A DNA stretch of 32,000 bases from Methylorubrum extorquens (GTDB lineage Bacteria > Pseudomonadota > Alphaproteobacteria > Rhizobiales > Beijerinckiaceae). The stretch is taken from contig LT962688.1 in assembly GCA_900234795.1 (NCBI GenBank), forward strand, positions 1,500,001-1,532,000, read 5' to 3'. Each line of letters opens with the position of its first letter. Within the stretch, counting starts at the first letter, position 1. Both the position numbers and the translations under genes were made by a program. The notes beneath the pieces are model-generated. The model was not told where the DNA came from. It saw nothing but the letters and a program-made list of their open reading frames with translations, and did no database searches. Of this stretch, positions 5,668-30,562 are shown one piece after another.

Positions 5668-5690
5668 AGAGCGGCCCCGCCGGCGCCGGC

Positions 5691-5751: not shown

Positions 5752-6939
5752 TCAGAAGGGGCCGGGCTTCGACCAGACGGTGTGGTTGACCTGATCGATG
5801 TAGGACAGGACGATCCGCACGACCTTGGTCGAAACCGCGCCGCCCTGGTAATCCGGCACGGCCCCGGCGAAGCGGCGGCCCTCACCATAACCGTCGCGCA
5901 CGGCCCGCACCGCCTCGACCAGATCGACCTTGCCGAGCGGCGCCACGATCAGCGTGCCGGCATCCATGCCCTCCGGCCGCTCATGCGCGTCGCGGAAGGT
6001 GACCGCCGGCAGGTCGAGCAAGGCCGCCTCCTCGGCGATGGTGCCGCTGTCGGACAGGACGCAATGGGCGCTCGTCTGAAGCTTCACGTAGTCGATGAAG
6101 CCGAAGGGCGGCAGGAAGCGAACGCTGTCGGGCAGCGACAGATCGCCCACGGCTTCGAGCCGGGCGCGGGTGCGCGGATGGGTCGAGACGACGATGGGCA
6201 GGCCGAACGCAGCGTGCAGCCGGCCGAGCTCTTCCAGGAAGACTCGCAGCCGGGCCGGCGAATCGACGTTCTCCTCGCGGTGGGCCGAGACGATGAAGAA
6301 CCGGTCCGGTTCGAGCCCGAGCCGGGCCAGCACGTCGGAGGCCTCGATCTTCGGGCGGAACTCGTCCAGCACCTCTTCCATGTGCGAGCCGACCTTGAAG
6401 ATGCGCTGCGCCGGCAGCCCCTCGGCCAGGAGGTAGCGGCGGGCATGCTCGGTCAGCACGAGGTTCACATCGCTGAGGTGGTCGATGACCTTACGGTTGA
6501 TCTCCTCCGGCACCCGCGGGTCGAAGCAGCGGTTGCCCGCCTCCATGTGGAAGATCGGGATCTTGCGCCGCTTGGCCGGGATCACGGCGAGCCCCGAATT
6601 GGTGTCGCCGTAGATCAGCACCGCGTCGGGCTGTTCCAGTTCGAGCACGGCGTCGGCGCGCTCGATCACCCGAGCGATCGTCGCCGCCGCATTCGGTCCG
6701 GCCGCTTCGAGGAAGTGGTCGGGCTTGCGGATGCCGAGGTCGTCGAAGAAGACCTGATTCAGCTCGTAGTCGTAGTTCTGGCCGGTATGGACGAGAACGT
6801 GGTTCGTCAGCCGGTCCAGCGCCCGGATCACGAGCGACATCTTGACGAGTTCGGGCCGCGTTCCGACCAGGGTGAGGATTTTTTTCAAAGGTCTCGGTCC
6901 CGGATCGGAGGCTGGAGCGCATTCCGACGAAGTGCTCAC
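5752..6939 (-). CDS. non-hydrolysing UDP-N-acetyl-hexosamine 2-epimerase, FnlC/WbvD/Cap5G-like
   Basis: 395-aa ORF with KILTLVGTRPELVKMS, HTGQNYDYELNQVFF, IYGDTNS and IFHMEAGNRCFDPRVPEEINRKVIDHLSD. This is the signature of the FnlC-type branch of the WecB family. It is the last gene of the L-hexosamine operon. Confidence 0.85.
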   Translation of the reverse strand: MSTSSECAPASDPGPRPLKKILTLVGTRPELVKMSLVIRALDRLTNHVLVHTGQNYDYELNQVFFDDLGIRKPDHFLEAAGPNAAATIARVIERADAVLELEQPDAVLIYGDTNSGLAVIPAKRRKIPIFHMEAGNRCFDPRVPEEINRKVIDHLSDVNLVLTEHARRYLLAEGLPAQRIFKVGSHMEEVLDEFRPKIEASDVLARLGLEPDRFFIVSAHREENVDSPARLRVFLEELGRLHAAFGLPIVVSTHPRTRARLEAVGDLSLPDSVRFLPPFGFIDYVKLQTSAHCVLSDSGTIAEEAALLDLPAVTFRDAHERPEGMDAGTLIVAPLGKVDLVEAVRAVRDGYGEGRRFAGAVPDYQGGAVSTKVVRIVLSYIDQVNHTVWSKPGPF

Positions 6940-7014
6940 CGGTTCATCGAAAGAATGCGCGTCAAAACAAGAACCTAGAGACGCTGACCTGATGCAATCA
7001 GGTCGGATACGGCT

Positions 7015-8049
7015 CTAGGAGGCGGCCCTGGTCCGCGAGGCGGGCTTCAGGGCTTGCTGGATGTAGTCGAGCTTGAGCAACAGATCGATGACCTGCTGCT
7101 GGTTCATCCGCTGCGTGTTGTGCGAGGTATAATCCTCGGCGGCCGAAATCGCCGTCTCGCCGGAGGTGAAGAACTTCGAGTAGTTTAGGTCACGGTCGTC
7201 GGCGGGGATGCGGTAGAACCCGTCCATGTCCTCGGCCCGCGCCATCTCCTCGCGCGAGACCAGGGACTCGTACAGCTTTTCGCCGTGGCGCGTGCCGATA
7301 ATCTTGATCTCGTTCTTGGCTTCAAAAATCGTCCGCAGGGCTTCGGCCAGATCCTGGACCGTGCAGGCGGGCGCCTTCTGCACGAAGATGTCGCCCTGCT
7401 GTCCGCGCTGGTAGGCGAACAGCACCAGATCGACCGAATCCTCCAGCGACATCAGGAAGCGGGTCATCGTCGGATCGGTGATGGTGAGGTCGCGCCCCTC
7501 TTTGATTTGGTTCACGAAAAGCGGAATCACCGAGCCGCGCGAGGCCATGACGTTGCCGTAGCGCGTGGCGCACAGGATCGTGTCGTCCTTGGCCAACATG
7601 CGCGACTTGGCGATCGTCAGCTTCTCCATCATCGCCTTGGACAGACCCATGGCGTTGATCGGATAGACCGCCTTGTCGGTCGAGAGTACGACCATCCGCT
7701 CGACGCCCGACGCGACCGCGGCGTTCAGCACGTTCTCGGCCCCGAGGATGTTCGTGCGCACCGCCTCCATCGGATAGAACTCGCAGGACGGCACCTGCTT
7801 CAACGCCGCCGCGTGGAAGATGTAATCGACGCCCTTCACCGCCGGCGCGATCGAGTTGTACTCACGCACGTCGCCGATGAAGAAACGGACCCGCGGATCG
7901 CGCAGCAGGAGGCGCATGTCCTCCTGCTTCTTCTCGTCGCGGCTGAAGACGCGGATCTGGCCGATATCGGTGGCGAGGAAGCGCTGGATCACCGCGTTAC
8001 CGAAGGAGCCGGTACCGCCGGTGATGAGGAGTGTCTTGCCGGAGAACAT
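7015..8049 (-). CDS. UDP-GlcNAc 4,6-dehydratase/5-epimerase, FnlA/WbvB/CapE-like
   Basis: The real start is ATG at 8049 (MFSGKTLLITGGTGSFGNAVIQRFL...), giving 344 aa. Also present: FSRDEKKQ, FIGDVRE, IFHAAALKQVPSCEFYPMEAVRTNILGAENV, LSTDKAVYPINAMGLSKAMMEK. The track ORF extends upstream to 8400, but that extension overlaps the reductase gene and is Arg/Pro-rich. The start overlaps the upstream stop by 1 nt (TGATG). Confidence 0.9.
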   Translation of the reverse strand: MFSGKTLLITGGTGSFGNAVIQRFLATDIGQIRVFSRDEKKQEDMRLLLRDPRVRFFIGDVREYNSIAPAVKGVDYIFHAAALKQVPSCEFYPMEAVRTNILGAENVLNAAVASGVERMVVLSTDKAVYPINAMGLSKAMMEKLTIAKSRMLAKDDTILCATRYGNVMASRGSVIPLFVNQIKEGRDLTITDPTMTRFLMSLEDSVDLVLFAYQRGQQGDIFVQKAPACTVQDLAEALRTIFEAKNEIKIIGTRHGEKLYESLVSREEMARAEDMDGFYRIPADDRDLNYSKFFTSGETAISAAEDYTSHNTQRMNQQQVIDLLLKLDYIQQALKPASRTRAAS

Positions 8050-8924
8050 CAGCGGATCCGTGAGAAGGCTTCGTCGTCGAAACGACGCATGTTGCGGATG
8101 AGATCCGGCCAGGACGGCGGTGCGTAGCCGACCGCGGCCCGGAACCGGTCCGAGTTGAGGGAGCGGTCGATCGCCACCGCGTCGTCGGGCTCGATCTCGG
8201 TTGCGACGCCGTAGACGTCCTTCACGATCCCGAGCAGGTCGAGCTTGCTGATCGGGTCCACGCTCACATGGTAGACGCCGCGCAGTGACGGGTTCGGCAG
8301 CACATGGTCGGCGATCACCCGCACCAGCTCGTCGGTGGTGAGGCCCGAGAAGATCGCCCGCCGGTAGCCGCGCACCGAACCGCTCTGGGCCAGGAACCAC
8401 TCAACGAGACCGTTGCGGCTGCCAATCTCACGACCGATGATGGAGGTGCGCAGCGTGACCGCGTTCGGGTAATCGACCTCGCCGAGGAGCTTCGAGCGCC
8501 CGTAGAGATCCTCCGCATCCGGGACATCGCTCTCGCGATAGTCGCCTTTGCGGCCGGTGAAGACGCAATCGGTGCTCACATGGATGAGGCGAGCGCCGAC
8601 GAGGTCGGCCAACCGGGCGAGCCGGTGCGGCAGGATGGCGTTGATCGGGATCGCGACCAGCGGGTCCTCGGCGGAGGCGAGCTGCTTGACGACGCCAACG
8701 CAGTTCAAGACCACGTCGGGCCGCACGTCACGCAGGAAGCCGGCCAGCGCGTCGGCATTCTCGACGTCGATTCCGACCGTGATGTTGGCGGCATCTTCCG
8801 GAAAGATCTTTTTTACAGCCGAGGAGCGCGCCGTCGCATAGACCGACCCAGGAAAGCTTTTTGACAAATATCGAAAGGCGGCACTTCCAAGCATGCCGGA
8901 TGAGCCTAAGACTGCAATCTTCAA
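8049..8924 (-). CDS. RmlD-like NDP-4-keto-6-deoxy-hexose 4-reductase (WbvR-like)
   Basis: 291-aa ORF with a TTG start. Rossmann motif MKIAVLGSSGMLGS. Other motifs: DVVLNCVG, IHVSTDCVF, and YGRSKLLGE (YxxxK). Its length and architecture match RmlD-type reductases, not the roughly 370-aa FnlB/WbjC/CapF type. Confidence 0.8.
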   Translation of the reverse strand: MKIAVLGSSGMLGSAAFRYLSKSFPGSVYATARSSAVKKIFPEDAANITVGIDVENADALAGFLRDVRPDVVLNCVGVVKQLASAEDPLVAIPINAILPHRLARLADLVGARLIHVSTDCVFTGRKGDYRESDVPDAEDLYGRSKLLGEVDYPNAVTLRTSIIGREIGSRNGLVEWFLAQSGSVRGYRRAIFSGLTTDELVRVIADHVLPNPSLRGVYHVSVDPISKLDLLGIVKDVYGVATEIEPDDAVAIDRSLNSDRFRAAVGYAPPSWPDLIRNMRRFDDEAFSRIR

Positions 8925-11169: not shown

Positions 11170-11179
11170 GAGTAGAGCA

Positions 11180-11896
11180 ATGAAGGCCATCATTCTCGCC
11201 GGCGGCAAGGGCACGCGCCTGATGCCCTATACGGCTGTCATGCCCAAGCCGTTGATGCCGATCGGCGAGATGCCGATCCTCGAACTCCTGCTGCGCCAAC
11301 TGCGCCAGCACGGGGTGACGGACGTCATCCTGGCCGTGAACCATCTCCATCATCTCATCCGGAGTTTCTTCACGGACGGATCGAATCTCGGCCTCAACAT
11401 CACCTACAGGGTGGAGGACAAGCCGCTGGGCACCAGCGGCCCGATCGCCGCCAACCTCGATCAACTGCCCGACCACTTCATCGTCACGAACGGCGACCTT
11501 CTGACGACGCTGAACTTCTCGGCGATGGTGCGCGAGCATCTCGATCGTGGGGCTGCCGCCACGATCGCGACCCACCGCCGGACGCTGCAAGCCGATTTCG
11601 GGGCGCTGACGGTTGGACCTGACTTGAGCGTATCTGAGTACCGCGAGAAGCCGGCGATGCATTTCGAGGCCTCAATGGGCCTCTATGTCCTCTCGAAGAA
11701 GGCCGTCGCGCCGCTCATTCCGGCCGACACCTTCTTCGACATGCCAGACCTTGTGCGCGCGCTTCTCGCGTCGTCACAGAAAGTCGTGAGCTACGTCGAG
11801 GATTGCGACTGGATTGATATTGGTCGTCCCGACGACTATGCCCGCGCCCAGGAGCAGTTCGTGGCCCGACCCGAGCATTTCCTTCCGGCTGCCTGA
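11180..11896 (+). CDS. sugar-1-phosphate nucleotidyltransferase
   Basis: ATG 11180 gives MKAIILAGGKGTRLMPYTAVMPKPLMPIGEMPILE, the G-x-G-T-R-L pyrophosphorylase signature. Length 238 aa. It starts 10 nt after the SDR stop. The track start 11093 overlaps the previous gene. Confidence 0.9.
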   Translation: MKAIILAGGKGTRLMPYTAVMPKPLMPIGEMPILELLLRQLRQHGVTDVILAVNHLHHLIRSFFTDGSNLGLNITYRVEDKPLGTSGPIAANLDQLPDHFIVTNGDLLTTLNFSAMVREHLDRGAAATIATHRRTLQADFGALTVGPDLSVSEYREKPAMHFEASMGLYVLSKKAVAPLIPADTFFDMPDLVRALLASSQKVVSYVEDCDWIDIGRPDDYARAQEQFVARPEHFLPAA

Positions 11897-13353: not shown

Positions 13354-14001
13354 TCAACGGGACGAAACAAGCAGATAGACCATAATAGACGCTGAGCATA
13401 GCAGGGATAAGGCTGCTGCCGCGAAGGTGGCGATTAGAAGTGCAGGCGTCTTTTGCGGTGATAGCCTCGACAAGGCGCTCAATTGCGGTTCAAGCCAAGC
13501 GAAGCCAGCTTGTGTCTCGGATTTCAGCGTATCGATCCGCTCGCCGATGTTTGCAAACGATCTCGGCAATTCCGACCAGGAGCCTGCGTCATCTCTGGAA
13601 TCGGCTGCCGGAACGGGGGAAGAAGGAGAAGCTGTCGGAGGGGCCGGGGAAGTTACTTCAAGTAGGTCGAGGACGAATGGATCGCCATTGTCGATCGTAT
13701 CGCCCGTGTCGAGAAAGTGGACCGATACTGAAACGCTACCGATTGGACCGAGTTGGCTCACATCAAAGCTGAAGATTCGCGCATTGCTGTAACCCAGCCT
13801 GCGGAAATCCTCGTCGGCCATATAGTGAGAAATCACCGGACCGGGCTGGCCGTCGATCTTGAGGAACACGGCCGGCGGATGGGAGCCGCTCCGGCTCGCC
13901 GTCGTTCCCTGGAGGTATCGCGGGCCCCTTGCTGCCAAATAGCCCCACGTGCCATCAGCTCGCCAGAGCGGATGCTGCCGCTCGCCGGTTTTCTCGGACA
14001 T
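13354..14001 (-). CDS. hypothetical protein, C-terminal single transmembrane anchor
   Basis: 215-aa ORF in the lower-GC block. It has an N-terminal globular part, a Pro/Ser-rich linker (TSPAPPTASPSSPVPAA) and a terminal hydrophobic stretch (PALLIATFAAAALSLLCSASIMVYLLV). It starts 20 nt downstream of the coiled-coil ORF. No family was recognised. Confidence 0.55.
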   Translation of the reverse strand: MSEKTGERQHPLWRADGTWGYLAARGPRYLQGTTASRSGSHPPAVFLKIDGQPGPVISHYMADEDFRRLGYSNARIFSFDVSQLGPIGSVSVSVHFLDTGDTIDNGDPFVLDLLEVTSPAPPTASPSSPVPAADSRDDAGSWSELPRSFANIGERIDTLKSETQAGFAWLEPQLSALSRLSPQKTPALLIATFAAAALSLLCSASIMVYLLVSSR

Positions 14002-14696: not shown

Positions 14697-15284
14697 TCAA
14701 CCGATCTGCTCAGGCGCCGAATCTATGTGCCATAGCCCCCCCTCCCGCCGCATGGCGCGCTGGGTTCCGACGAGTTGCGCCGCCGCAACCAAATCCTCGT
14801 ACTGTATCTCGCACTTCCGATAGGGCCACTGATCGAAGTTATCATTCATTTCGTGGAAAAGCTGATCGAGGCTGCGACCGTACATGCCCGGAGCTCCTTC
14901 GAAGAGTTCGCCGCGATCCTGGTAGCTCTTGGCGACCTGACTTCGGTCACGCGTAATTTTGAGGAGAACAGGCTGCTGGGGGAGGCTGGCGACCGTCTGT
15001 GTCCAGAGCGGTAGCGTGAATGTCAAACGAGGATCCTTCAAGGCAAAGGGCGAGCGCAGTTGCGTGAGGTAATGCTGGGCACGATCGTAGATGTCAGACT
15101 CGAACGTGCCGCTTCGATAGAGGTCGTTCAATTCGCGCATTCCGACGCTCTCGCAGAACACTTCGTCTGCGTCATTTCTTTCCCATCCCAGCTGGAACAT
15201 AACGTTGGCAAGTATTGATGTTCCGCTGTGTCCGACACCGATGATTATGACATCTGGTTTTTGTGCGATGCTTGCTTCCAGCAT
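14697..15284 (-). CDS. sulfotransferase-like P-loop protein (PAPS-dependent family suspected)
   Basis: 195-aa ORF. GVGHSGTS at residues 16-23 resembles the 5'-phosphosulfate-binding loop. KDPRLTFTLPLW and LLKITRDRSQVAKS (107-120) resemble the RDPxDxxxS 3'-phosphate-binding element. A small nucleotide-kinase fold cannot be excluded by eye. Confidence 0.6.
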   Translation of the reverse strand: MLEASIAQKPDVIIIGVGHSGTSILANVMFQLGWERNDADEVFCESVGMRELNDLYRSGTFESDIYDRAQHYLTQLRSPFALKDPRLTFTLPLWTQTVASLPQQPVLLKITRDRSQVAKSYQDRGELFEGAPGMYGRSLDQLFHEMNDNFDQWPYRKCEIQYEDLVAAAQLVGTQRAMRREGGLWHIDSAPEQIG

Positions 15285-15526: not shown

Positions 15527-15988
15527 ATGCTGATGGTCAAGGCGCCGAGAGTGCTGGTCGATGCGCGCGAAACCGACCTCTTGAGAGGCTTCCATGCCCT
15601 CGCTGTCACAGAGTGCCTGCTACGTGCCGGCATGAAGGCAGATTGGCACTTCCTGACAGAAGGGGATCCGGACGAACAGCTAGCGATCGCCTCGCTGCGC
15701 TTCGATTGGTCGATCGCTGTCTCCTCCTGGGATGGGCGCACGGCGACCGAAGACTTCGATCTGTACGTCATCGTCGGAGATGCCTTCCCGGCCGATCCGA
15801 CCACCGAGGCCGCATTGCAGGCCGCTCGCCTCACCCTGGCAGGCCTGACCTCGGCCTCGGAGCTGCCCGTGCGGCCTGCCGTCCTGTGCATGTTGGGGCA
15901 CGACACCGCCGCTTTGGCCGGCATGGCAGCGACCCTACTTCGGGCGGAACACATAACGTCGGGCTCCTCTCTCGGATGGAGACGGTAA
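15527..15988 (+). CDS. hypothetical protein, partner of the downstream glycosyltransferase
   Basis: 153-aa ORF. Its TAA stop overlaps the ATG of the next gene (TAATG at 15986-15990). It shows weak collinear similarity to the 144-aa product of 28351..28785, which holds the same position upstream of the paralogous GT. Confidence 0.55.
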   Translation: MLMVKAPRVLVDARETDLLRGFHALAVTECLLRAGMKADWHFLTEGDPDEQLAIASLRFDWSIAVSSWDGRTATEDFDLYVIVGDAFPADPTTEAALQAARLTLAGLTSASELPVRPAVLCMLGHDTAALAGMAATLLRAEHITSGSSLGWRR

Positions 15989-17214
15989 TGTCGCAGCGTG
16001 CTCGGCTCCGCCTTCTCGTCGTGGGCATGTCCAACAGTCCGCATCTGCATCGCTGGGTGAGCATGGTCGCCCGGCCGGATGTGGCAATCGTCGTGTTTCC
16101 CTCGCTGAGCTTCCCGGTGAACCTGCCGGAAGGCTTTCGGCTGATCGATCTAGCAGATGTGACTGAGGATCTGGAGCCGGGCATCTTCCTTCTGACACAC
16201 ACCGAGAGCCGCAGGGAGGAGGACACGCTTGAGGATCGAGATTGGGGCTATGTGCCGTTCTCGCACAGCTTCGTTCCCCCTCACATGCTCTCGACCCCGG
16301 CTGCACTCCTGCGCTGCATCGACCGGCTTCGCCCTCATCTGCTGCACGGGATGGAGACGCAGATCGCCGGCTATCTCTGTGCGGAAGCTGCGCGGCGAGC
16401 GGCCAACTTCCCGACTTGGATCCAATCGACCTGGGGCAGCGACCTGTTCCTCTTCCGCAAGCTGGAGGGTCATCCGGAGCGATTGAAAAAGGTGTTCGGG
16501 CGGGTTCAGATACATCTGGCCGATTGTGCGCGAGACCGGCCGATCGCGCGGCAGTTCGGTTATCAGGGACCGGACATGCCGATCGTTCCCTCGTCGGGCG
16601 GTGTGAGTATCGATGACATGCGCCGCTTCGGTGGGACCCCACCGTCGAAACGGACGCGGATCCTCGTCAAAGGATATCACAACTGGGCGGGACGAGCTTT
16701 GCTCGGCCTCTCGGCGCTCACCCTGGTGCGGGATGAACTCAAAGGCTTCGGCATCGACATCCTTGCCGCCGGACCACGCGTGAGGGCGTGGGCTCAGCAG
16801 ATGAGCGCGACGCTCGGAATGGAGGTGCGGGCCCTCGATTACATGGCCGATCACACGGATGCGCTCCGTCGCTTGGGCGAGGCGCGCTTAGTGATCGGGC
16901 TCGGCATTTCGGACGGCCTCTCCACCACGGTGCTCGAAGCGATGTCGGTTGGAACCTTTCCGGTCCAGAGTTGCACCAGTTGCTGCGACGAATGGATCCA
17001 GGATGGGCAGACTGGTCTCATCGTGCCGCCGTCGGATACGCGCGCGATCGCGAATGCCATCGTCAGGGCCGCGACCGACGACGAGCTCGTCGACACCGCC
17101 GCCCGCAGGAACCTCGAAACGGTCAGCCGGCGCTGGAGCACTCCAGCTAACCGTGTGATGGCTTGGCGGATCTACGACCAAGCCTTAGGCAAAACGGCTG
17201 CCTCCAGGGTTTGA
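15988..17214 (+). CDS. GT-B fold (GT4-like) glycosyltransferase
   Basis: ATG 15988 (MSQRARLRLLVVGMSNSPHLHRW...), 408 aa. The C-terminal domain reads RILVKGYHNWAGR...ARLVIGLGISDGLSTTVLEAMSVGTFPVQSCTSCCDEWIQDGQTGLIVPPSD...ATDDELV, an EX7E-like region. The track extension back to 15349 is Arg-rich and overlaps the 153-aa gene. Confidence 0.85.
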   Translation: MSQRARLRLLVVGMSNSPHLHRWVSMVARPDVAIVVFPSLSFPVNLPEGFRLIDLADVTEDLEPGIFLLTHTESRREEDTLEDRDWGYVPFSHSFVPPHMLSTPAALLRCIDRLRPHLLHGMETQIAGYLCAEAARRAANFPTWIQSTWGSDLFLFRKLEGHPERLKKVFGRVQIHLADCARDRPIARQFGYQGPDMPIVPSSGGVSIDDMRRFGGTPPSKRTRILVKGYHNWAGRALLGLSALTLVRDELKGFGIDILAAGPRVRAWAQQMSATLGMEVRALDYMADHTDALRRLGEARLVIGLGISDGLSTTVLEAMSVGTFPVQSCTSCCDEWIQDGQTGLIVPPSDTRAIANAIVRAATDDELVDTAARRNLETVSRRWSTPANRVMAWRIYDQALGKTAASRV

Positions 17215-17247: not shown

Positions 17248-17271
17248 ACGCCGGAGCCATGGCTCCGGCGT
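17248..17271. terminator. perfect 24-nt palindrome between convergent glycosyltransferase genes (putative bidirectional terminator)
   Basis: The sequence is ACGCCGGAGCC-AT-GGCTCCGGCGT. It lies in the 66-nt gap between the stops at 17214 and 17281. Confidence 0.55.
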
Positions 17272-17280
17272 GATCCGCGA

Positions 17281-20200
17281 TCAGCCTTCCACGAGTGCTT
17301 GAACCCGGTCGATCATGCGCTCGATGTCGAAATGCTCGCGGGCGAAGGCCTGGGCCGCTTGGCGGGCTCGGGCAGTCCGTTCGGGATTGTCGAGATACGA
17401 GAGAACGGCGTCTGCGAGCGCCTGCGGATCCGATCCGGCGACGGACACGCCGGTCTCCCCCGGACGTATCGTTTCATCGATGGCGCCGACCCGCCGCGAC
17501 ACCACGGGCACGCCGCTGGCCTGGGCTTCGATGATCGCGTTCGGCATCCCCTCGCTGAAGGAGGTGAGCAGGAAGACGTCGAGCGCTGGCAAGGCCGCAT
17601 AGGCATCCTCAAGCGCTCCCGTGAACCGGAAGGCGCCACTCAGCCCGAGTTCGGCGGCGGCATTCTTCATTGCCGGGAGCAGCGGTCCGTCGCCGATGAC
17701 GGCAAAGACGGTGTCGGGTCTGCGCGCTGCGACGGACGCAGCCACCTGCACCCAGAGCAGCGGCGCCTTCGGTAAAGCGATGCGCATCACGACACCGACG
17801 ACGGGCCGGTCGGCATCGATGGAAAGGGTTTGGCGCGCCCGCGCACGGGCAGCAGGGTCGAGGGCCGAGTGGAAGCTCCCGATCTCGAACCCGCTCGGCA
17901 CGATGCTTGCGCGGCCCTCGAGATCGACTCCCAGCCAATCGGCGTAATCGTCGACACAGGTCTGAGCCATGCCGGTCAGATGGACTTCGGGGCGGGAAAG
18001 AAGCTGCCGATAACCTTCCCTGTACCAGTGACAGGCATCCGCATCGTCGATGAAGTCCGGCGGCCGCATATTGTAGGTTCCCAGCAGAATCCGGGGAACG
18101 CCGGTCAGCACGGCGGCGAGGCCGCCGACGAGGTTAGGGACTTCGAGATGAGCGTAGAGCACCGCGGGCTTGCGTGCCCGAAACAGCTCGATCAGCCACT
18201 GGTGATAGGACGAGGCTCCTATCCATTTGTAGGGTGCCTCAACCCTCTGTACGTCATCGTAAATGAGTAGCTCTTCGCGGGCATGACCTGTCTCCGACAG
18301 GTAGAAGCTCGTGGCGCGCTCCTGCGCGCAATCGAACAGCAGCAGTTCAACCGGCCGCGACCCGAGCCGCTTGCGCAGACGGGCGAACAGCATCGCGACC
18401 AATCGTTCGGCACCGCCGCGCGCCAGGGTCCAACTGAGGATGAAGATGGGCCCGCCCGGACGGGGCGTGGGTGGTGGTGTGGAGCGCACAACGCGCTCCA
18501 GCACCTTCACTGCCGCCTCCGTATGGGGAGCGCCGGGTACGACATCCATCGCTGCGACGAAGTCGGCGAGGCTCGACAGCGCCTCGCTCAGCGCCGAGTC
18601 GGAACTGAGCGCAGATGCCGATCGCCGCAGAATCACTGCATCTCCGGCGGGAAGCGTGGTGACCGGTTGCACCTCCAGCAACGCGCGAGCGAGGTCGGCA
18701 TTGCCGGGCGCCTCGGCCAAGCCGGCTCGAACGACCTCTGCCGCCTCCGCAAGCCGCCCCGTCCGGCGCAGAAGCCTGAAGTATGACAATGCCCCCTCTA
18801 CCGGATTCAGGGCGATGGTACGCTGCACCAAGTCGGAGACACGCTGCAGCATATCCAGCGATGCGTTGCCGTCGAGCAGGGCCTGAGAAGCGAGGCACGC
18901 CAGGGCCGGTGTGGTGATGCCGGTGCGGACGGCGCGTTCCGCTTCGACCCGGGCCCAATTCCGTTCCCCCATCTCGATCAGCAGGCTCAGGGCTTGGAGC
19001 CGCAGTTCCTCGTTATCGGGATAATGCGCGCGGGCATGGAAGATCGTTTGCAGCGCCTTGTCGAGTGCCCCCCGTCCCTGATGCAGATGCATGCACCGGA
19101 TGAAGGCGTAGGGGGACGGCTCCGATGTCTCGAGGAGCCGCTCGAGCCAGTCGAGCGCCCCGGCAGAGTCACCGGCCTGCTGCGCGAACTGGCTGAGCGC
19201 ATCGAGAGCCTCCGGGTCGTTCGGCTCGTCGGCCAGCCGCAACCCGTAGAGATCTTTCGCCAGTAGGATTTGGCCTTCCGCACCGAGCCGCCGGGCGGTC
19301 GCGTGCAGCGCTGCCACGTCGCGGGTCGTTCGGTAGGCCTGGGTTGCCTGATCGGCCTCGCCGGCGAAGGCAATCGCCCGGCGGCTCTCCGCCAGTCGCT
19401 CGAGCTTCGAAACCTGGCGGGAATGGGCCGGGTCGGCTTCAAGGGCGCTGCACAGGGCATCGATCCGTTCCAGGATCGAGTTCCGGCCAAGTGCGAACAG
19501 CGCATGGGTCCAATGAATGTCCGAGAGGGCACCACTGATACCGAGGACTGCGTGTCGCCGGGCGAGCCAGATCGCCACCAGTGCGTCTTCGGCCGGCCCC
19601 GCGGTCGCTTCGAATCGGAAACCGCCGAGGAAGACCGTACGGTGTATCATCAGGGCCGAGGTGGCCACCGGACAATCCGCGATGATCTCCGGGTAGGTCG
19701 TCTCCCCGAGGCTGCTTCCCGGCCCAGCCGGCTCCGTGCCTCCGCCTCCGACAGAATAGCCGGTATATGAGACGGTGCGGCCCGCCTCCGCCATCGCATC
19801 AAGCTGGCGTAAGATCTTATCTGACAAAAAGGTGTCGCGAGGGTCGAGGAAGGCCAGATAGTGGCCGCGCGCCTGCTCCATTCCCGTGTCGAACGGATCC
19901 GCGCCTGCTTCCGACGGAATGCGCCGTACGCGCGGGTCACCCGCGATCGCCGCCTCCAGATCGGCTGGAAGCGGGGCATCGGTGACGAGGATCACCTCGA
20001 GATTGGTGTGGCTCTGCTGCAGGATCGAGCGCAGCGCCCGTACCGGATCGGCGCCCGCCGTGCGGACCGAACGATCGCAGGGAAGAATGACCGAGACCAG
20101 GGTCTTCGCGGCTGACCAAAGCGCAGCCTGCTCATGGCCGTAGGCCGCCACCTCCGCGATTCCGGCAGATCCGTAGTAGGTAGCATTCTCCACAAAGAAG

Positions 20201-21060
20201 CGCTTCTCGCTGCCCTCCATCTGAACCCGCTGCGTCTCAGAGCGTCCGTCCATCAGGCGCTGAAAGAGCCTGTTCCGCTCAATCAGCGATCCGGGCTTGT
20301 GAGAATCCTGGCCGGGATGGGTTCTGTAATGAACGTGTGCTTCCTTCTGTAGAAAGAACTCGTGTTCTTGGGAGATCCTGAGCCAGAGATCATAGTCCTG
20401 CGTGTACCGGAGGGATTCGTCAAATGGATAAAATTCTTTGATGATCCATGCAGGAATATAGAGCGTGCACCCGTTGACAAGGCCGCGATGAAGCGGCAGG
20501 AGCGGCTTTTCTGTAAGCAATCCAAGCTCAATATCGGTGGTATAAAAAAGTTTTCCTTCCGGATCGATCAGGCCGTAATCTGTAAAAAGAATCGCATTTG
20601 GCCTATTTAGGCGCCGATGAAAGGAGACTTGTGACTCGGTTTTATGAGGGAGGTATATGTCGTCGTGGCTAAGCCAAGTGAATACGTCGCCGGTCATGTG
20701 GCGAATCGCCGTGTTCAGCGCGCCAGACACGCCGCGATTTTCTTGGCTAAAATATCGGATCCGATCGGAGTACTTTAGCGCAATCCGCTCCGTCTCTCCG
20801 CCGTCGTTGGACCCGTCGTTGACGACAATAATCTCTATGTTTCCGTAAGTTTGCGCTAGCGCACTACGAAGTGCCAGCTCGAAATATCGGCCACCATTCA
20901 TGACCGGCATCACGATCGTGACCTTCGGATTGGGCATCACAGCTGGCTCGGACTCGCCCGCTGATCCGAACAGCCGACCACTGTCTCGATGGGTCAACGC
21001 TCCCTTGTGCAAGCTGTCGTCTGTCTTGACAGTCCGATCCTGCAGGATTGCTTCGCCCAT
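17281..21060 (-). CDS. 1259-aa multi-domain glycosyltransferase: GT2 + second GT2-like + TPR-like helical array + GT4 (GT-B)
   Basis: GT2-1 (aa ~46-255) has VTIVMPVMNGGRYF...IIVVNDGSNDGGETE...ENRGVSGALNTAI...TWLSHDDIY. GT2-2 (aa ~321-520) has VSVILPC...LEVILVTDAP...YLAFLDPRDTF. The helical repeat region (aa ~570-800) includes NDPEALDALSQFAQQAGDSAGALDWLERLLE and HYPDNEELRLQALSLLIEMGE. The GT4 domain (aa ~870-1259) has FAVIGDGPL...FLLTSFSEGMPNAIIEAQASGVPVVSRRVGAIDETIRPGETG. Confidence 0.9.
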   Translation of the reverse strand: MGEAILQDRTVKTDDSLHKGALTHRDSGRLFGSAGESEPAVMPNPKVTIVMPVMNGGRYFELALRSALAQTYGNIEIIVVNDGSNDGGETERIALKYSDRIRYFSQENRGVSGALNTAIRHMTGDVFTWLSHDDIYLPHKTESQVSFHRRLNRPNAILFTDYGLIDPEGKLFYTTDIELGLLTEKPLLPLHRGLVNGCTLYIPAWIIKEFYPFDESLRYTQDYDLWLRISQEHEFFLQKEAHVHYRTHPGQDSHKPGSLIERNRLFQRLMDGRSETQRVQMEGSEKRFFVENATYYGSAGIAEVAAYGHEQAALWSAAKTLVSVILPCDRSVRTAGADPVRALRSILQQSHTNLEVILVTDAPLPADLEAAIAGDPRVRRIPSEAGADPFDTGMEQARGHYLAFLDPRDTFLSDKILRQLDAMAEAGRTVSYTGYSVGGGGTEPAGPGSSLGETTYPEIIADCPVATSALMIHRTVFLGGFRFEATAGPAEDALVAIWLARRHAVLGISGALSDIHWTHALFALGRNSILERIDALCSALEADPAHSRQVSKLERLAESRRAIAFAGEADQATQAYRTTRDVAALHATARRLGAEGQILLAKDLYGLRLADEPNDPEALDALSQFAQQAGDSAGALDWLERLLETSEPSPYAFIRCMHLHQGRGALDKALQTIFHARAHYPDNEELRLQALSLLIEMGERNWARVEAERAVRTGITTPALACLASQALLDGNASLDMLQRVSDLVQRTIALNPVEGALSYFRLLRRTGRLAEAAEVVRAGLAEAPGNADLARALLEVQPVTTLPAGDAVILRRSASALSSDSALSEALSSLADFVAAMDVVPGAPHTEAAVKVLERVVRSTPPPTPRPGGPIFILSWTLARGGAERLVAMLFARLRKRLGSRPVELLLFDCAQERATSFYLSETGHAREELLIYDDVQRVEAPYKWIGASSYHQWLIELFRARKPAVLYAHLEVPNLVGGLAAVLTGVPRILLGTYNMRPPDFIDDADACHWYREGYRQLLSRPEVHLTGMAQTCVDDYADWLGVDLEGRASIVPSGFEIGSFHSALDPAARARARQTLSIDADRPVVGVVMRIALPKAPLLWVQVAASVAARRPDTVFAVIGDGPLLPAMKNAAAELGLSGAFRFTGALEDAYAALPALDVFLLTSFSEGMPNAIIEAQASGVPVVSRRVGAIDETIRPGETGVSVAGSDPQALADAVLSYLDNPERTARARQAAQAFAREHFDIERMIDRVQALVEG

Positions 21061-22401: not shown

Positions 22402-24447
22402 TCAAGCCGCTGCGTTGATCCAACTGCCGATCCGGGGTGGGTTGAACTGCCATTTCAGGAGCAATGGCGATAGATTGGTCTGGCTGCGCAAGGCCCCGCC
22501 GGCTTCGGCGGCCGGCCAGGACCAACCGATCCGTTCCGTACCGCACACGATCGGGCTGCCGTCTGCAAGGCGGGCGTAGAGGTCGAGAAGGCCACAATCC
22601 CCCATCGACTCATCGATCACGAGTCGCTCGCTCCGGCGCAACAGAATGCCGCCGGTCCGTGGTTCCGGATCGATCAGGCTGTGCAGATTGAACTGGGCGG
22701 CTTTATGATTCCGAAGGACCGCGCCGAATTCGTCGAGTTCCGACCAGAGCCCCAGCGCGAGGTCAGCTTCAGGCGTCGATTGAGATGCCCGCAGAAGGCG
22801 GCGCAAGGCTGCGCCTTCGATGCCATCGCCGGCCTCAAGCAGGAGGATCGCTTCAGCCTGTGATTGCTCGAAGGCACGGTTGATGGCGGCCGCCTCTCCG
22901 ATCGCCGCGGAGAGCATTGTCGCATGAGGATGGAAGCTTCGCAGGCGCTGCGGCAGATCCTCGAACTCCCCGTGTGCCTCGATTAGGATTTTCACGGCAA
23001 GTCCGTCCGACCCCGGCGCGCGCAAGGTGGCCAAGCTCCGTTCGAGCGCTCCGCGATCACGCCCAGCGCGCAGGATGATCTCGATGTCGTTCCTCGCAGG
23101 CGGCGGCGCAACAGAGCGCCAGATCCGGGCAGGGGCATGACTCAACGGATGGGCTGCGAGAGCCCGCTCAAGACGGCCATGATCCGTACGGCCCGAACCT
23201 GCCGGGGCCGATCCGATCACGTCCGCGAAGAAGTCGTTGCGAGGCGGCGGCCAGCCGCCCTCTAGGATGGTTTTGCGCAAATGTCCGGATCGCGCCTCGT
23301 AATCGCCGAGCAGAAGCTCCAGCTTGGCTGCGGCATCGGCCAGATCGTCGGGATCGATGATCGGCGGAGCGATCCCAGCATGGCGCGCTTCGAGAAAGGC
23401 TGCGGCACCCGCCTGTTTCGACAGGAGGATCGGTGCCCCCGACATGGTTGCCTCGACCGCGACGTAGTTGAACGCATCGGAACGGGACGGGATCACGAGC
23501 ACCGAACGGCCGCGAAAGGCGCGCGACCATAACTCTTCGTGGCTGATCTCGCCAAGATACTCGGCAGGGACCTGCCGCTCGCGGGCGAGGTCGAGCACCG
23601 TCTCGGACCAGCGCGGTCCTGATGTGGCCCAGTGGTTGTCCGGACCACAGAGATAACAGTTCCGATAGAGGGAGCGGGGAACCTGGGAGGCAATTTCGAT
23701 GAAGAGGTCCGGTCCCTTGTTCCTGTCAAGGCGTCCGACGAACCAGAGATCGGGCGGGCCTTCCCCTGGCGGAAGGGGCGCCGGGAGCGGTACCGTATCA
23801 AGGGCGTCATGCATGTCGACGATCGCCGATGGCTTCGCTTGGATGTTCTCGGCGGCATGGAGATCCGAGATCGTGTAGCTCACATCCGAGCCCGCGATGC
23901 AGCGCCGCTCCATGTCCTCGATCCGCTGCACGACCGCCTCGGGGACTTCCGACGCATAGGCGTTGCGGTTGCTGACGCTCAGCCAGCCGAGCATACCCAG
24001 CGAGATCGTTCCGACCCCGATGCCGAACGCGGCGAAGATCGGACGGATGAGATGCGCCACGGGGAAGAAGGAGGGCACTTCAACAACGTCGATAAACTGG
24101 CCCTGAAGTGGCACGGCTATCTGGCACACGATCAAGGCATAGGAGCGCTCCTCAACGCCTTCGATCTTCAGCGCGCCGAGGAGATCCCACGGATAGAGAA
24201 AGCGATCGAAGCCGTAGGGATGCGCATTGGCAGGCAGGCCGGAGCGCACTTCGCCCGAGAGATCGCGCCCCCGCGACGGATAGAGGAAGGTCCAATCCGG
24301 ATGCCGCTCGACCACGCGCCGATAGAATGTCTGCCCGCCGCCGAGCGCCGAGTAGAAGTCGAAATCGCAGATCAGGGCGCGGATCGGTCGACGCCCGGCT
24401 GGCAATTCAGTTGCGGCCGGCATCATCATCATCGGAACAGCCGCCAT
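22402..24447 (-). CDS. two-domain glycosyltransferase: N-terminal GT4-like (GT-B) + C-terminal degenerate GT2-like domain
   Basis: The GT-B part reads WFVGRLDRNKGPDLFIE...VLVIPSRSDAFNYVAVEATMSGAPILLSKQAGAAAF. The C-terminal part reads DIEIILRAGRDRGALERSLATL...AAAINRAFEQSQAEAILLLEAGDGI. The likely true start is ATG 24432, which forms an ATGA overlap with the upstream stop at 24429-24431. Confidence 0.8.
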   Translation of the reverse strand: MAAVPMMMMPAATELPAGRRPIRALICDFDFYSALGGGQTFYRRVVERHPDWTFLYPSRGRDLSGEVRSGLPANAHPYGFDRFLYPWDLLGALKIEGVEERSYALIVCQIAVPLQGQFIDVVEVPSFFPVAHLIRPIFAAFGIGVGTISLGMLGWLSVSNRNAYASEVPEAVVQRIEDMERRCIAGSDVSYTISDLHAAENIQAKPSAIVDMHDALDTVPLPAPLPPGEGPPDLWFVGRLDRNKGPDLFIEIASQVPRSLYRNCYLCGPDNHWATSGPRWSETVLDLARERQVPAEYLGEISHEELWSRAFRGRSVLVIPSRSDAFNYVAVEATMSGAPILLSKQAGAAAFLEARHAGIAPPIIDPDDLADAAAKLELLLGDYEARSGHLRKTILEGGWPPPRNDFFADVIGSAPAGSGRTDHGRLERALAAHPLSHAPARIWRSVAPPPARNDIEIILRAGRDRGALERSLATLRAPGSDGLAVKILIEAHGEFEDLPQRLRSFHPHATMLSAAIGEAAAINRAFEQSQAEAILLLEAGDGIEGAALRRLLRASQSTPEADLALGLWSELDEFGAVLRNHKAAQFNLHSLIDPEPRTGGILLRRSERLVIDESMGDCGLLDLYARLADGSPIVCGTERIGWSWPAAEAGGALRSQTNLSPLLLKWQFNPPRIGSWINAAA

Positions 24448-26039
24448 TTTTTCTTCGCTGGCTGCAAGGGAGCTGCCACCTGCGGCTGCGGCTCTGCATA
24501 ATCCGACGCAGTAGGGGCGTCCCAGGTGAGGTAGGCGCCCGGATAGAAGCTCGGCGCCGCCTCGGTCCGCCGCAGGCGACTATATTCTGCCGCCCATCGT
24601 GTCCGGACGGCTGCGAGTTCTGACCGCACAATCACCGCCGTCGCATTCATGGGCAGGATCCAGCTGTAAGGACGACCATCTAAGCGCAGGCCGAGGCCGC
24701 AAGCTGCGCCAGCGAGGATCGGCAAACCTTGCGCCATGGCAGCTGAGACGCGGAAATCGAACACTTCCGGCGCCGGGCTCGGGAACCAGACAAGGTGAGG
24801 TCGCAGGACACAGACCAGCTTATTAAGGTCGAGGCAGTTGGCAGGGCCAAGGTTCCGCAGACCGGCAGGCGCGCGGGCCATGGGCGTCCCGCCGAGACTA
24901 TAGAAACGCACCGCGGCCTGGTCGTCGCGGCAGGCGGCGATGGTCTCCGCTACGAGTCGCTTTTCCGGCTCCAAGGCTCCGTTCCAAATCAGAACACGCA
25001 ACTCCTCGTCGGGATCCAGACGAGCCGGATGCACACGGAACAGGTTTGGCTTTCCGGGCTCGGGATCGAGGCCGATCGTGATTGGCCGCCCCGGAAACCA
25101 AGCGCGTAGCGCGGCTAGCATGATATCGCTGCAGGCGATGGTACGGGCGGCCTGTTGCACAAGCGCCCGGAACTCCCCGATTGCAGCCGCGTCCATGGAG
25201 CTTGGCGCTGGAGGAGCTGCGAGAGGCGTGAGATCGAAGGCGCAGCCGAGGGCCGCGATGACCGCTCGCGCGGCAGGTTTGAATTCGGTCGCGAGCAGGT
25301 CGATCCGGTCGATCCGTAGGGGAAGCGCGGCCGATGCCAAATCCTCGACAGGCAACCGCGTTGTCACAGACCCTGCCGTAGCGGGAGCGGCCGAACTGAT
25401 GACGAGTTGTCCATCCTCGAGCCAGCCGAACAGGATGTTCACACGGCGGCGGACAGTCTCCTGCAGATGGGTAGCGAACTGTTCCGCGAAACGGTTCCGC
25501 TCCTCCAGCAGCAGAAGCAGGGTCGGTCGGTCGGGCTGCAAACCCTCCGCCAGACGCTCAAGGCTGTAGCGCTCGGCCATGGCAAGGGCAGTGGCGAGAG
25601 GCCCGAGCGGCAGGCCAACCGGAATATTGCGCAACGTTTCCGGGGAGATCTCGACGATCTTCTCGGCGTCGAAACCGTAATGTTCGAACTGGGCCTCGTC
25701 GATGACGAGATGGCGCGTCTCCTGCCCGGGATGGGAGCAGACTACGAGGTGAACCGATGTGCTTCCCGATCGGCGGACGAGCCGACTGCCGGGTCCGAGC
25801 ACGCTTCCCTCCGGCAGGCGGGCGCAATCGGTTTCAGTCCGGAACGCGTCGTCGCGGAAGATCGACCGCATGACGTCGATATCGGTGATGTAATGGCGCT
25901 GGTCGCCGAAGACGAACCAGATCTGATGCTCGCCAGGAATCTGGACACGCAGGCCATCGAAGTCAGGCGCGTCGCCGGAAAGATCAGTTTGCGGCGACAT
26001 GGAGCCGGCTCGACATACCGAGTGATTGGAGGAAGTCAC
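24429..26039 (-). CDS. hypothetical protein with unknown N-terminal region and a GT-B-like C-terminal half
   Basis: 536-aa ORF (alternative start ATG 26000). The C-terminal part, RVLIWNG...LVWFPSPAPEVFDFRVSAAMAQGLPILAGAACGLG, looks like the nucleotide-sugar-binding half of a GT-B enzyme. The first ~300 aa match no family I recognise. It overlaps both neighbours, consistent with coupling. Confidence 0.65.
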   Translation of the reverse strand: MTSSNHSVCRAGSMSPQTDLSGDAPDFDGLRVQIPGEHQIWFVFGDQRHYITDIDVMRSIFRDDAFRTETDCARLPEGSVLGPGSRLVRRSGSTSVHLVVCSHPGQETRHLVIDEAQFEHYGFDAEKIVEISPETLRNIPVGLPLGPLATALAMAERYSLERLAEGLQPDRPTLLLLLEERNRFAEQFATHLQETVRRRVNILFGWLEDGQLVISSAAPATAGSVTTRLPVEDLASAALPLRIDRIDLLATEFKPAARAVIAALGCAFDLTPLAAPPAPSSMDAAAIGEFRALVQQAARTIACSDIMLAALRAWFPGRPITIGLDPEPGKPNLFRVHPARLDPDEELRVLIWNGALEPEKRLVAETIAACRDDQAAVRFYSLGGTPMARAPAGLRNLGPANCLDLNKLVCVLRPHLVWFPSPAPEVFDFRVSAAMAQGLPILAGAACGLGLRLDGRPYSWILPMNATAVIVRSELAAVRTRWAAEYSRLRRTEAAPSFYPGAYLTWDAPTASDYAEPQPQVAAPLQPAKKKWRLFR

Positions 26040-27306
26040 CGCGCGTCTCGATGGCGCGGGTCAAGGCAGCGGTGAGGGCGTCGCGGCGTACGATCAAGCC
26101 GGATAAGGCGCCGAGCGGATCCGCATCCGGCCAAGCCTCCTGTGGAATGGCGATGCCGTCGAGAGCCGGATCGCGCAAGAGGCGACTGAACGCTGGCCAG
26201 AAGGCGGAGACGGGGACGTCCTGCCGGAGGAAGGCGAGGATCGGGGCATCGAACTCAGCAAGAGCACGGGTGACCAGATCCTGCGGATCGATCGGTGCGC
26301 CGAGGATGGTGCTGCCCGATAAAGTTTCCGGCAGCGGATCGGCGACGAGCAGGGATTGCTGATCGAGCGAGGCGTCCACTAAGAGGAAGGCGAGGTCCAG
26401 ACCGCTGCTGGCGAGTTCGGCCTTCGCGACCGATGCCGCACGCGGACTGCGGCTGCTCAGGACGATGCCAGCCCGAAGCGTTCGTGCCCGGCGGCGCACC
26501 AGTGCGTCGGCACCCTGTTTGGCGCTGTCATACCCTGTGACCTTAAGGAAGTCGCAGGCGCGAAGGAGGAAGGCCAACTCCGAGCCCGCATGCTCGCGCG
26601 CCTTTTCCTCCGGCACTCGCTCGAGCATCTCCATCCACAGCAGGCTCGCCTCCTCGATATGCCGACGTCCGCGCGACCCCTGTCCCTCATGCACGCGGTG
26701 CCGGACCAGAGCGCCGGGCACGTGGACGAAGGGGTAATGCAGCGCAAGCCGCCACCACAGCTCGTAGTCCTGGGTTGTCGGCAAACCGATATCGAAGCCG
26801 CCATGGCGCTCCAGTAGGGCACGGTCCAGCAGGACGGTGCAGCCGTTGATACGACCTTCGAGGATGGCCCATAGCGGTTGATCGCTGCGATAGCCCGATC
26901 CGGTCTCGATCTCGGCCAGAACAGTGCCATCCTCGCCCATAGTGGCATAGTCGCCAAAGGCGACACACGGCCCTGGCTGGGCGTTGAGAACCTTCATCTG
27001 CACCTCGACCTTGCGCGGATCGTACAGGTCGTCGTGGCTGAGCCAAGTCAGATATCGGCCGCTCATCGCGGCAATGCCGGTATTGAGAGCTGCGCCGACG
27101 CCGCCGTTCTCCCTATGCAGATAGCGGACACGGGTGCCGAAGGAGCGGCAGACCCGTTCGGTATGTCCATTGTCCTCCGAGCCGTCGTCGATGACGAGCA
27201 CCTCGATTGCCGACCACGTTTGCGCCAGCGCGCTCTCGATGGCCTGGGTCAGAAAGGGCCCGCCATTGTAGACGGGGATGATGATCGTGACGGTTTCAGG
27301 GCACAT
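25984..27306 (-). CDS. GT2 family glycosyltransferase with a C-terminal extension
   Basis: 440-aa ORF. Motifs: VTIIIPVYNGGPFLTQAIESALAQTW, IEVLVIDDGSEDNGHTE, ENGGVGAALNTGI, TWLSHDDLY, QDYELWWRL. It is clearly paralogous to GT2-1 of the 1259-aa protein. Confidence 0.9.
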   Translation of the reverse strand: MCPETVTIIIPVYNGGPFLTQAIESALAQTWSAIEVLVIDDGSEDNGHTERVCRSFGTRVRYLHRENGGVGAALNTGIAAMSGRYLTWLSHDDLYDPRKVEVQMKVLNAQPGPCVAFGDYATMGEDGTVLAEIETGSGYRSDQPLWAILEGRINGCTVLLDRALLERHGGFDIGLPTTQDYELWWRLALHYPFVHVPGALVRHRVHEGQGSRGRRHIEEASLLWMEMLERVPEEKAREHAGSELAFLLRACDFLKVTGYDSAKQGADALVRRRARTLRAGIVLSSRSPRAASVAKAELASSGLDLAFLLVDASLDQQSLLVADPLPETLSGSTILGAPIDPQDLVTRALAEFDAPILAFLRQDVPVSAFWPAFSRLLRDPALDGIAIPQEAWPDADPLGALSGLIVRRDALTAALTRAIETRGDFLQSLGMSSRLHVAAN

Positions 27307-30401: not shown

Positions 30402-30562
30402 AGCCGCTCGTAGTCCTCCTAAGCTACCATCGCAACTAGCGCGGATATTTCGCAACCCTCGTGACATCAGCGCCCGCATATTGGCGCAACAGCTTCACTC
30501 CAACGCCCAGGCAGCCCGCAGAGCGTCGATCGCCTCCTGCTTCATGTCTGCGTACCCGCTGT

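Follow-up and report, generated by a model that had tools for sequence, protein, structure and literature searches.

The GT2-GT2-TPR-GT4 reading frame

The window analysed here is a stretch of 32,000 nucleotides (32 kb) from Methylorubrum extorquens (contig LT962688.1), and all coordinates refer to it. On its minus strand, positions 17281..21060 form a single open reading frame (ORF) with an ATG start, which encodes 1259 aa and ends with a stop codon. The product is identical to SOR28226.1, a 'Glycosyl transferase (modular protein)' of M. extorquens. An initial annotation of this stretch had described two family 2 glycosyltransferase domains (GT2), an array of tetratricopeptide repeats (TPR) and a family 4 glycosyltransferase domain (GT4) in one ORF, and this arrangement was confirmed by Pfam and AlphaFold2. 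The four nucleotide segments it had proposed correspond to residues 46-255, 321-520, 570-800 and 870-1259 and match the modelled domains. The residues it had cited, namely D133/D134, D406/D409 and the EX7E motif (E1170/E1178), were all found at their positions. From the N- to the C-terminus, the protein is composed of the following parts:

20929..21060 (-), residues 1-44: N-terminal extension with no recognised domain, 39% identical to the matching stretch of the homolog P0002
20296..20928 (-), residues 45-255: GT2a, a canonical GT-A domain of family 2, recognised by Pfam PF00535, motifs, AlphaFold2 and Foldseek
20104..20295 (-), residues 256-319: linker between GT2a and GT2b, four helices in the AlphaFold2 model
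19486..20103 (-), residues 320-525: GT2b, GT-A fold with degraded catalytic motifs
19318..19485 (-), residues 526-581: helical connector; the homolog P0121 aligns from residue 559 on
18661..19317 (-), residues 582-800: TPR array of six canonical 34-35-residue repeats and a cap helix
18451..18660 (-), residues 801-870: linker between TPR and GT4, three helices and a Pro-rich segment, predicted local distance difference test (pLDDT) score 64-87
17284..18450 (-), residues 871-1259: GT4, a retaining-type GT-B domain recognised by Pfam PF00534 and Foldseek

The 1259-aa ORF is a real, correctly delimited multi-module glycosyltransferase gene. An identical 1259-aa protein is encoded on 20 separately assembled contigs, each from its own read set, and in a 5.7-Mb NCBI genome record. 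The whole frame is also uninterrupted in P0002, a 1315-aa homolog from an unrelated metagenome that is 72% identical and has the same neighbouring genes. The ORF is therefore not an assembly artefact. That two or three adjacent genes had been joined by sequencing or assembly errors, which the initial annotation had named as the finding that would overturn it, could draw on the existence of the modules elsewhere as separate or shorter genes and on the deviating GC content at third codon positions (GC3) of GT2a. Given the independent assemblies, the conserved frame and module junctions that fall within confidently modelled helices, this explanation is effectively refuted. GT2a has a GC3 of 0.60 (0.45 at its lowest), versus 0.71-0.79 in the ORF downstream of it, a contrast that fits a mosaic origin; in P0002, GC3 is uniform (0.91-0.93).

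A Shine-Dalgarno-like GGAAG lies 6 nt upstream of the first ATG. Since M42 has no Met counterpart in P0002, the extension formed by residues 1-44 is probably translated. A scan for promoters and terminators around the gene gave nothing above chance, and no transmembrane segment was found in the 1259-aa protein.

Two AlphaFold2 models cover the protein. The model of residues 40-600 (pLDDT 88, predicted template modelling score (pTM) 0.83) shows two GT-A folds linked by four helices. The model of residues 559-1259 (pLDDT 86, pTM 0.64) shows a helix-pair array closed by a cap helix, from which three linker helices lead to a GT-B fold that starts at about residue 872.

Domains, motifs and modular origin

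Judged by sequence comparison, the 1259-aa protein is a fusion of a common GT2a-GT2b didomain with a rare TPR-GT4 unit, each of which also occurs apart. Three architectures were found. P0121 of Azospirillum sp. TSH64 (700 aa) consists of TPR-GT4 alone and aligns to residues 559-1259 of the query with 53% identity. P0003 of Azospirillum sp. ST 5-10 (962 aa) is a GT2b-TPR-GT4 protein that begins inside the inter-domain linker (256-319). The full-length GT2a-GT2b-TPR-GT4 order is present in the query (1259 aa) and in P0002 (1315 aa). No decayed GT2a was found upstream of the Azospirillum GT2b-TPR-GT4 gene. Because TPR-GT4 stands alone in P0121, the TPR is best seen as the N-terminal part of a TPR-GT4 unit and not as a spacer between GT-A and GT-B. 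The view taken in the initial annotation, an array inserted between GT-A and GT-B modules, must be revised in this respect.

The didomain is widespread: GT2a and GT2b follow each other in the same order in 37 of the 131 other proteins collected by the searches, and most of these relatives are ~40-60% identical to the query in GT2a and ~30-42% in GT2b. The ortholog P0002 reaches 86-87% and 63%, respectively. The usual fusion partner of the didomain is a GT4 of a different type from the query's own (for example in P0007, P0010 and P0014). TPRs follow the didomain in P0018, P0023 and P0024 (each didomain, TPR and another domain), and weakly in P0008. The query TPR showed no specific kinship with TPRs of the P0018, P0008 and P0012 type (E 0.5 or worse), so TPR-bearing modules were probably joined to the didomain more than once, or have diverged beyond detection. 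The searches found no experimental study of any GT2a-GT2b fusion protein, and a look through the literature for the M. extorquens O-antigen or for this gene brought up no pertinent paper.

The TPR-GT4 unit, on the other hand, is rare. When residues 559-870 were searched exhaustively against 1.84 billion representative proteins, only three clusters had E-values below 1e-30, namely the query's own, P0003 and P0121; the other 248 matches were generic TPR proteins. A scan of one genome per species (185,579 species) with two exact peptide patterns, by which distant relatives would be missed, returned only two Azospirillum loci. As the representative genome of M. extorquens gave no match, the gene is strain-specific. 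It is known from a single lineage of M. extorquens, from one relative in a metagenome and from two species of Azospirillum.

Pfam Glycos_transf_2 matches the protein with E 1.4e-35 in two stretches. In GT2a, the score for PF00535 is 123.2 bits against a cut-off of 23.3, with residues 48-153 as the best stretch. The acidic motif WLSHDD contains D133/D134 (nt 20659-20664, within TWLSHDDIY). Among 38 aligned homologs, VVNDGS and WLSHDD are each conserved in 36 and TQDYDLW in 29, while the QD-x-[DEA] core of the latter, with its key Asp residues, is kept in 37; for all GT2a motifs, the key Asp residues are retained in at least 36. Foldseek matched GT2a to SpsA, TarP and 6p61. With a GT-A fold, an acidic DxD-type motif and a catalytic-base Asp all in place, GT2a looks active, and would be a working inverting transferase.

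GT2b is also recognised as a GT2 domain, by the second PF00535 stretch and by a GT-A model with pLDDT mostly above 85. Most relatives retain the ancestral GT2b motifs VDDGST, FLD[SA]DD and GEDxxxW (the ED motif). In the query and its two closest counterparts, these motifs read as follows:

Query: VTDAPL / FLDPRD / AEDAL
P0002: VAEGPL / FLDPRD / AEAAL
P0003: LVGDPG / FLDPRD / ADDAL

The query motif AFLDPRD (D406/D409; residues 406-409, nt 19834-19845) carries Arg408 at the metal-binding Asp position, the third of FLD-x-D-D, as do P0002 and P0003. This third position is the metal-binding Asp in SpsA and K4CP, and the equivalent Asp is present in the GT2a of 37 of the 38 aligned sequences. In P0002, the closest ortholog, the Asp of the ED motif, the putative catalytic base, is missing as well, and Glu takes the place of D361. 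The third Asp of GT2b was also lost in seven other aligned lineages, where the motif reads DFGA, EVGG, GTED, DAQD, DKNI, NQNV or EAGD, and most of these are without the ED motif as well. Moreover, GT2b changes faster than the other domains: its identity to P0002 is 63%, versus 87% for GT2a and 81-84% for GT4. Arg408 and the motif losses in P0002 and the other lineages thus indicate that GT2b is probably non-catalytic. The domain has kept its fold and most likely acts as a structural or ligand-binding domain. Of the three catalytic modules originally counted in this protein, GT2a and GT4 retain intact motifs and GT2b probably does not belong among them.

The TPR array is well defined. Its helix pairs begin at residues 582, 616, 650, 684, 718 and 753, with a period of 34-35 residues and pLDDT above 90 in the AlphaFold2 model. 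Aligned in register, the six repeats carry the residues typical of TPRs, i.e., a small residue at A20, hydrophobic residues at F24 and A27, and a Pro near position 32. Pfam TPR_14 scored marginally (25.0 bits, cut-off 23.5), with weaker TPR matches at 616-701, and the exhaustive search with residues 559-870 retrieved confirmed TPR proteins with E-values as low as 2.5e-17. No modelled helix is longer than 30 residues (550-579), and the helical region is a TPR solenoid and not a coiled coil; an extended coiled-coil ruler of the WbdD/WbbB type is absent from the AlphaFold2 models, and the ruler role raised in the initial annotation found no support. Repeats 3-4 (650-717) are 56-65% identical to the Azospirillum proteins, close to the GT4 domain (56-68%), versus 30-38% for repeats 1 and 5. 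In a comparison of four sequences, this pattern weakly suggests that the central repeats form a conserved functional surface. The central region is thus not the non-repeat linker without conserved surface that had been named as a possible outcome, as it models as six TPRs of which repeats 3-4 are conserved.

GT4 gave E 2.7e-28 with Glycos_transf_1 (PF00534, residues 1074-1237) and E 1.8e-28 with Glyco_trans_1_4; the scores for PF00534 and PF13692 were 99.1 bits (cut-off 26.4) and 100.1 bits (cut-off 27). The GG loop (G882/G883), R1093/K1098 and the EX7E motif (E1170...E1178, nt 17527-17553) are all retained and invariant, EX7E in the four orthologs and E1170 also in a broader GT4 alignment. 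Foldseek aligned the domain with MshA, BshA and HepE (target-normalised TM-score 0.76-0.86) and with PimB' and WaaG (about 0.8). By its motifs and predicted fold, GT4 looks like an active, intact retaining-type transferase.

The surrounding gene island and homologous loci

Beyond ~5.7 kb, the window has a GC content of 55-66% up to its end, versus 68-73% in the left flank (1-5700), which carries core genes for a sigma factor, a protease and a GidA/TrmFO-like protein. At the right end, a rve_3 transposase fragment lies at 30436-30945. The low GC content, this fragment and the absence of the gene from the species-representative genome suggest a horizontally acquired, strain-specific island. The neighbours of the 1259-aa ORF are listed below:

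2327-3949 (-): gene for an RTX calcium-binding-repeat protein, outside the low-GC island
5752..8924 (-): fnlC/wecB-, fnlA- and rmlD-like genes, which would make UDP-2-acetamido-2,6-dideoxy-L-hexose
10096-11896 (+): LegB-like NAD-dependent 4,6-dehydratase (415.6 bits, cut-off 475) and nucleotidyltransferase
13354-14001 (-): 215-aa protein without family, one C-terminal hydrophobic segment
14022-14309 (-): 95-aa protein, weak matches to coiled-coil families only
14697-15284 (-): 195-aa protein with a P-loop-like N-terminus; Sulfotransfer_3 E 0.005, below cut-off
15533-15988 (+): 151-aa protein without family
15988..17214 (+): GT4 of 408 aa, convergent with the 1259-aa ORF
22402-24432 (-): GT4 of 676 aa with a degenerate C-terminal region that has a GT2-like strand pattern and no Pfam match
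24429-26000 (-): 523-aa protein without family
25984-27306 (-): 440-aa paralog of GT2a, 36% identical to it, with WLSHDD and TTQDYELW, followed by ~180 residues without family
27346-28306 (-): broken second copy of the neighbour-type GT4 (ORFs 27310-28140 and 27689-28354)
28351-28785 (-): 144-aa protein without family
29805-30479 (-): adenosine 5'-phosphosulfate (APS) kinase, E 1.7e-60

The island is best explained as a polysaccharide cluster of the O-antigen or capsule type. The wecB/FnlC homolog scored 229 bits, above its cut-off, and the FnlA homolog 529 bits, below its cut-off of 730; the fnl/rmlD-like genes probably supply the cluster with a donor sugar. Beside the fnl-like genes, a second 6-deoxy-N-acetylhexosamine pathway, possibly GDP-linked, is suggested by the LegB-like dehydratase/nucleotidyltransferase pair, which recurs in the cluster of Azospirillum sp. 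ST 5-10. Two further epimerase/dehydratase genes and, besides the 1259-aa ORF, four or five other transferase genes complete this set.

The convergent 408-aa GT4 is 25-41% identical, mostly over most of its length, to the didomain-fused GT4 of nine proteins (P0005, P0006, P0007, P0008, P0010, P0012, P0014, P0051 and P0070). Since a GT4 of this type is fused to the didomain elsewhere, the neighbour appears functionally tied to GT2a-GT2b and is likely its functional partner. The two convergent transferase genes are 66 nt apart, and the interval contains a perfect 22-nt palindrome, CGCCGGAGCCATGGCTCCGGCG (17249..17270). It may act as a bidirectional terminator hairpin; it has no T-run, and the scan for consensus terminators did not report it.

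In the broken GT4 copy, homolog residues 21-78 are encoded in one frame and 155-412 in another, and the N-lobe lacks ~76 residues. Independent assemblies have the same gene call of 276 aa, and this copy is probably a pseudogene or a truncated paralog. The 676-aa and 440-aa neighbours, too, seem to carry degraded extra domains; local BLAST with the tails of both gave no matches. Five cluster genes had no significant family match. One of them, the 144-aa protein, shares 38% identity with the C-terminal end of a 626-aa protein in the related cluster of Azospirillum sp. ST 5-10, which has a faint Sulfotransfer_2 match and a TPR. Together with the APS kinase and the 195-aa protein, that Sulfotransfer_2 match raises the idea that the polysaccharide of the island may be sulfated.

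Homologous loci place the protein in a similar setting. The cluster of Azospirillum sp. ST 5-10 has several genes in common with this window. In Azospirillum sp. TSH64 (locus L008), P0121 is encoded in a run of genes that all lie on the same strand, together with fnlB/A/C-like genes, a methyltransferase of 588 aa, RgpF and the ATPase Wzt with a Wzt_C domain. The didomain protein P0015 (L011) is encoded between ABC (ATP-binding cassette) transporter genes and fnlA/B/C-like genes, and P0018 has an fnl-like trio nearby; such a trio adjoins the homologs in L008, L010 and L011. Genes of the Wzm/Wzt type are absent from the 32-kb window and present beside the homologs in L008 (Wzt with Wzt_C) and L011. 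These loci speak for the likeness to multi-transferase enzymes of ABC-transporter-dependent pathways on which the initial annotation had drawn. No flagellar genes were found in the window or in loci L005, L007 and L008.

Proposed function and comparison with known systems

We propose that the gene encodes a two-unit, soluble, multi-module glycosyltransferase of a polysaccharide island, in which GT2a and GT4 work, GT2b is non-catalytic and the TPR serves in docking. We regard this combined model as moderately probable. The enzyme would be cytoplasmic and act at the cytoplasmic face of the membrane, where GT2a (inverting) and GT4 (retaining-type) would each add one sugar to a lipid-linked glycan, either one after the other or as a two-site polymerase that alternates between them. 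The donors would include a 2-acetamido-2,6-dideoxyhexose supplied by the cluster's own genes. Via the conserved repeats 3-4, the TPR may dock a partner protein or the growing chain. The 408-aa neighbour GT4 would work with the GT2a-GT2b didomain, for which GT2b may provide a structural or ligand-binding part. In this scheme, we infer the substrates, the choice between polymerase and single addition, the role of the TPR and the export route.

Several observations weigh against this model. The 32-kb window contains no ABC transporter, Wzx/Wzy, initiating phosphoglycosyl transferase or transmembrane-rich ORF, so that the assignment to a pathway rests on the homologous loci. The argument from TPR conservation has low power, since this TPR is present in four sequences only. 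In GT2b, the DPRD sequence is identical in the query, P0002 and P0003, which are only 54-63% identical across the domain, and the query retains D361 and E491-D492. This combination suggests selection on the site, and GT2b may accordingly bind a ligand or be active.

The same residues are the starting point for a reading in which all three transferase domains are catalytic and transfer three different sugars, GT2b by a non-canonical D-x-x-D site or with Arg408 replacing the metal, as in metal-independent GT-A enzymes. Besides the invariant DPRD and the retained acidic residues, the GT-A fold of GT2b is predicted with high confidence, and GT2b is fully canonical in many relatives, which makes its ancestor an enzyme. 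Nevertheless, we find full activity doubtful, because an oppositely charged residue stands where Asp is otherwise universal in the third position, P0002 is without the ED Asp and carries Glu for D361, the motifs have wholly disappeared in several sister lineages (e.g., DFGA, EVGG, DKNI and NQNV), and GT2b evolves faster than GT2a and GT4. A related idea is that GT2b has been repurposed, with DPRD as a metal-independent active site in which Arg408 stands in for the cation, or as a nucleotide-sugar- or acceptor-sensing pocket that controls the two working sites. We judge this rather unlikely. If true, a repurposed GT2b and the conserved TPR repeats 3-4 could set the sugar order or the chain length in a manner unlike coiled-coil rulers.

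A protein acceptor was also considered, i.e., that TPR-GT4 is a protein glycosyltransferase of the OGT/SPINDLY/FlmG type whose TPR holds flagellin, an S-layer protein or an RTX protein. The whole-length Foldseek matches of the 559-1259 model do include SPY, OGT and XcOGT, in which a TPR precedes a GT-B domain, and RTX-repeat genes occur at 2327-3949 and near the Azospirillum homolog. Those structural matches, however, have TM-scores of 0.3-0.4 with a root-mean-square deviation (rmsd) of 14-21 Å and reflect a common domain order only. The catalytic domain is GT4 and not GT41, with no PF13844 match at E up to 1. Flagellar genes are not nearby, and every close homolog is surrounded by genes for sugar nucleotides and polysaccharides, in one case within a run that includes Wzt. 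The RTX gene of the window is outside the low-GC island, and its similarity to the RTX gene adjoining the Azospirillum sp. TSH64 homolog (L008, 4753-5799) is at the repeat level only (E 9e-5, 84 residues); RTX genes near both loci may be a coincidence or encode glycan-associated surface proteins. Gene context thus gives no support to the FlmG/OGT-type role for the TPR that had been raised initially, and we consider a protein acceptor very unlikely. The polysaccharide enzyme with GT2a and GT4 as working sites remains our preferred interpretation.

Many bacterial O-antigens and capsules are assembled by large multi-module transferases, which are also useful for enzymatic glycan synthesis. The present family illustrates module swapping, in that various GT4 partners are found on one tandem GT-A unit, and TPR-GT4 moves as a block. 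Its second GT-A domain has repeatedly lost catalytic residues with the fold kept, and thus offers a testable case of a non-catalytic transferase domain inside a working enzyme. The natural series of 700-, 962- and 1259-aa proteins provides ready constructs with which the contributions of the TPR and GT2b can be measured. The practical importance is modest, because the gene is confined to few lineages.

Among characterized enzymes, the closest parallels to the N-terminal half are K4CP/KfoC, the chondroitin polymerase of E. coli K4, and PmHS2, the heparosan synthase of Pasteurella multocida. Both are cytoplasmic enzymes of ABC-transporter-dependent capsules, bifunctional, and built from two tandem GT-A domains as in the query. 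Foldseek ranked them as the best structural matches of residues 40-600, with E 4e-22 for K4CP (~570 columns aligned) and E 1e-17 for PmHS2, and GT2a matches the A2 domain of K4CP by sequence (E 9.5e-14). With 14-17% identity and a TM-score of ~0.35, the domains are oriented differently from those of the query. K4CP has a working DXD in both domains, whereas the second domain of the query has Arg and hence not two active DXD sites; unlike the query, K4CP and PmHS2 contain neither TPR nor GT4.

For GT4, the best NCBIfam match was TviE (PRK15179, residues 957-1253), the GT4 polymerase of the Vi antigen in Salmonella Typhi and Bordetella. TviE carries its GT4 after an alpha-helical N-terminal domain and acts in an ABC-transporter-dependent pathway with TPR-mediated enzyme contacts (PMC8760489). 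The scores of 147.7 bits against a cut-off of 733 (PRK15179) and 87.1 against 813 (PRK15490) indicate that the query is not a TviE. A TviE-type architecture was ruled out, as the match stops at GT4 and the N-terminal helical domain of TviE has no informative motifs (PMC8760489). In the Vi system, TviD and VexE carry TPRs, and the TPR of TviD binds the helical N-terminal domain of the GT4 TviE (PMC8760489). There the TPRs belong to the partners and not to TviE, whereas in the query TPR and GT4 share one chain.

In Cps3D/Cps7D, the TagF-like multi-domain capsule polymerases of Actinobacillus pleuropneumoniae, a single chain holds a TPR and two catalytic modules, of which one is a retaining GT-B. 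Cps3D has the order TPR-CgoT-CgaT, and its TPR is needed for linker elongation and processive synthesis (PMC11666461). The entry 8qoy was among the sequence and structure matches of the query, through its GT-B and TPR parts only. Unlike the query, Cps3D has its TPR at the protein N-terminus and a TagF-like phosphotransferase where the query has GT2; no Glyphos_transf match was obtained in the query, and the structural match is low (TM-score 0.35, rmsd 23 Å). OGT, SPINDLY (GT41) and the FlmG type resemble the query in having a TPR superhelix directly N-terminal to GT-B. Their superposition is poor, the catalytic family of OGT and SPINDLY is GT41 as opposed to GT4, and the query lies in a polysaccharide context with no candidate protein acceptor. 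Taken together, the TPRs of Cps3D, TviD and VexE show that TPRs on cytoplasmic polysaccharide transferases were already known; as other didomain proteins carry them too, the array is less unusual than had been supposed at first. What is particular to this protein is the combination of its modules, the rarity of the TPR-GT4 unit and the degraded GT2b.

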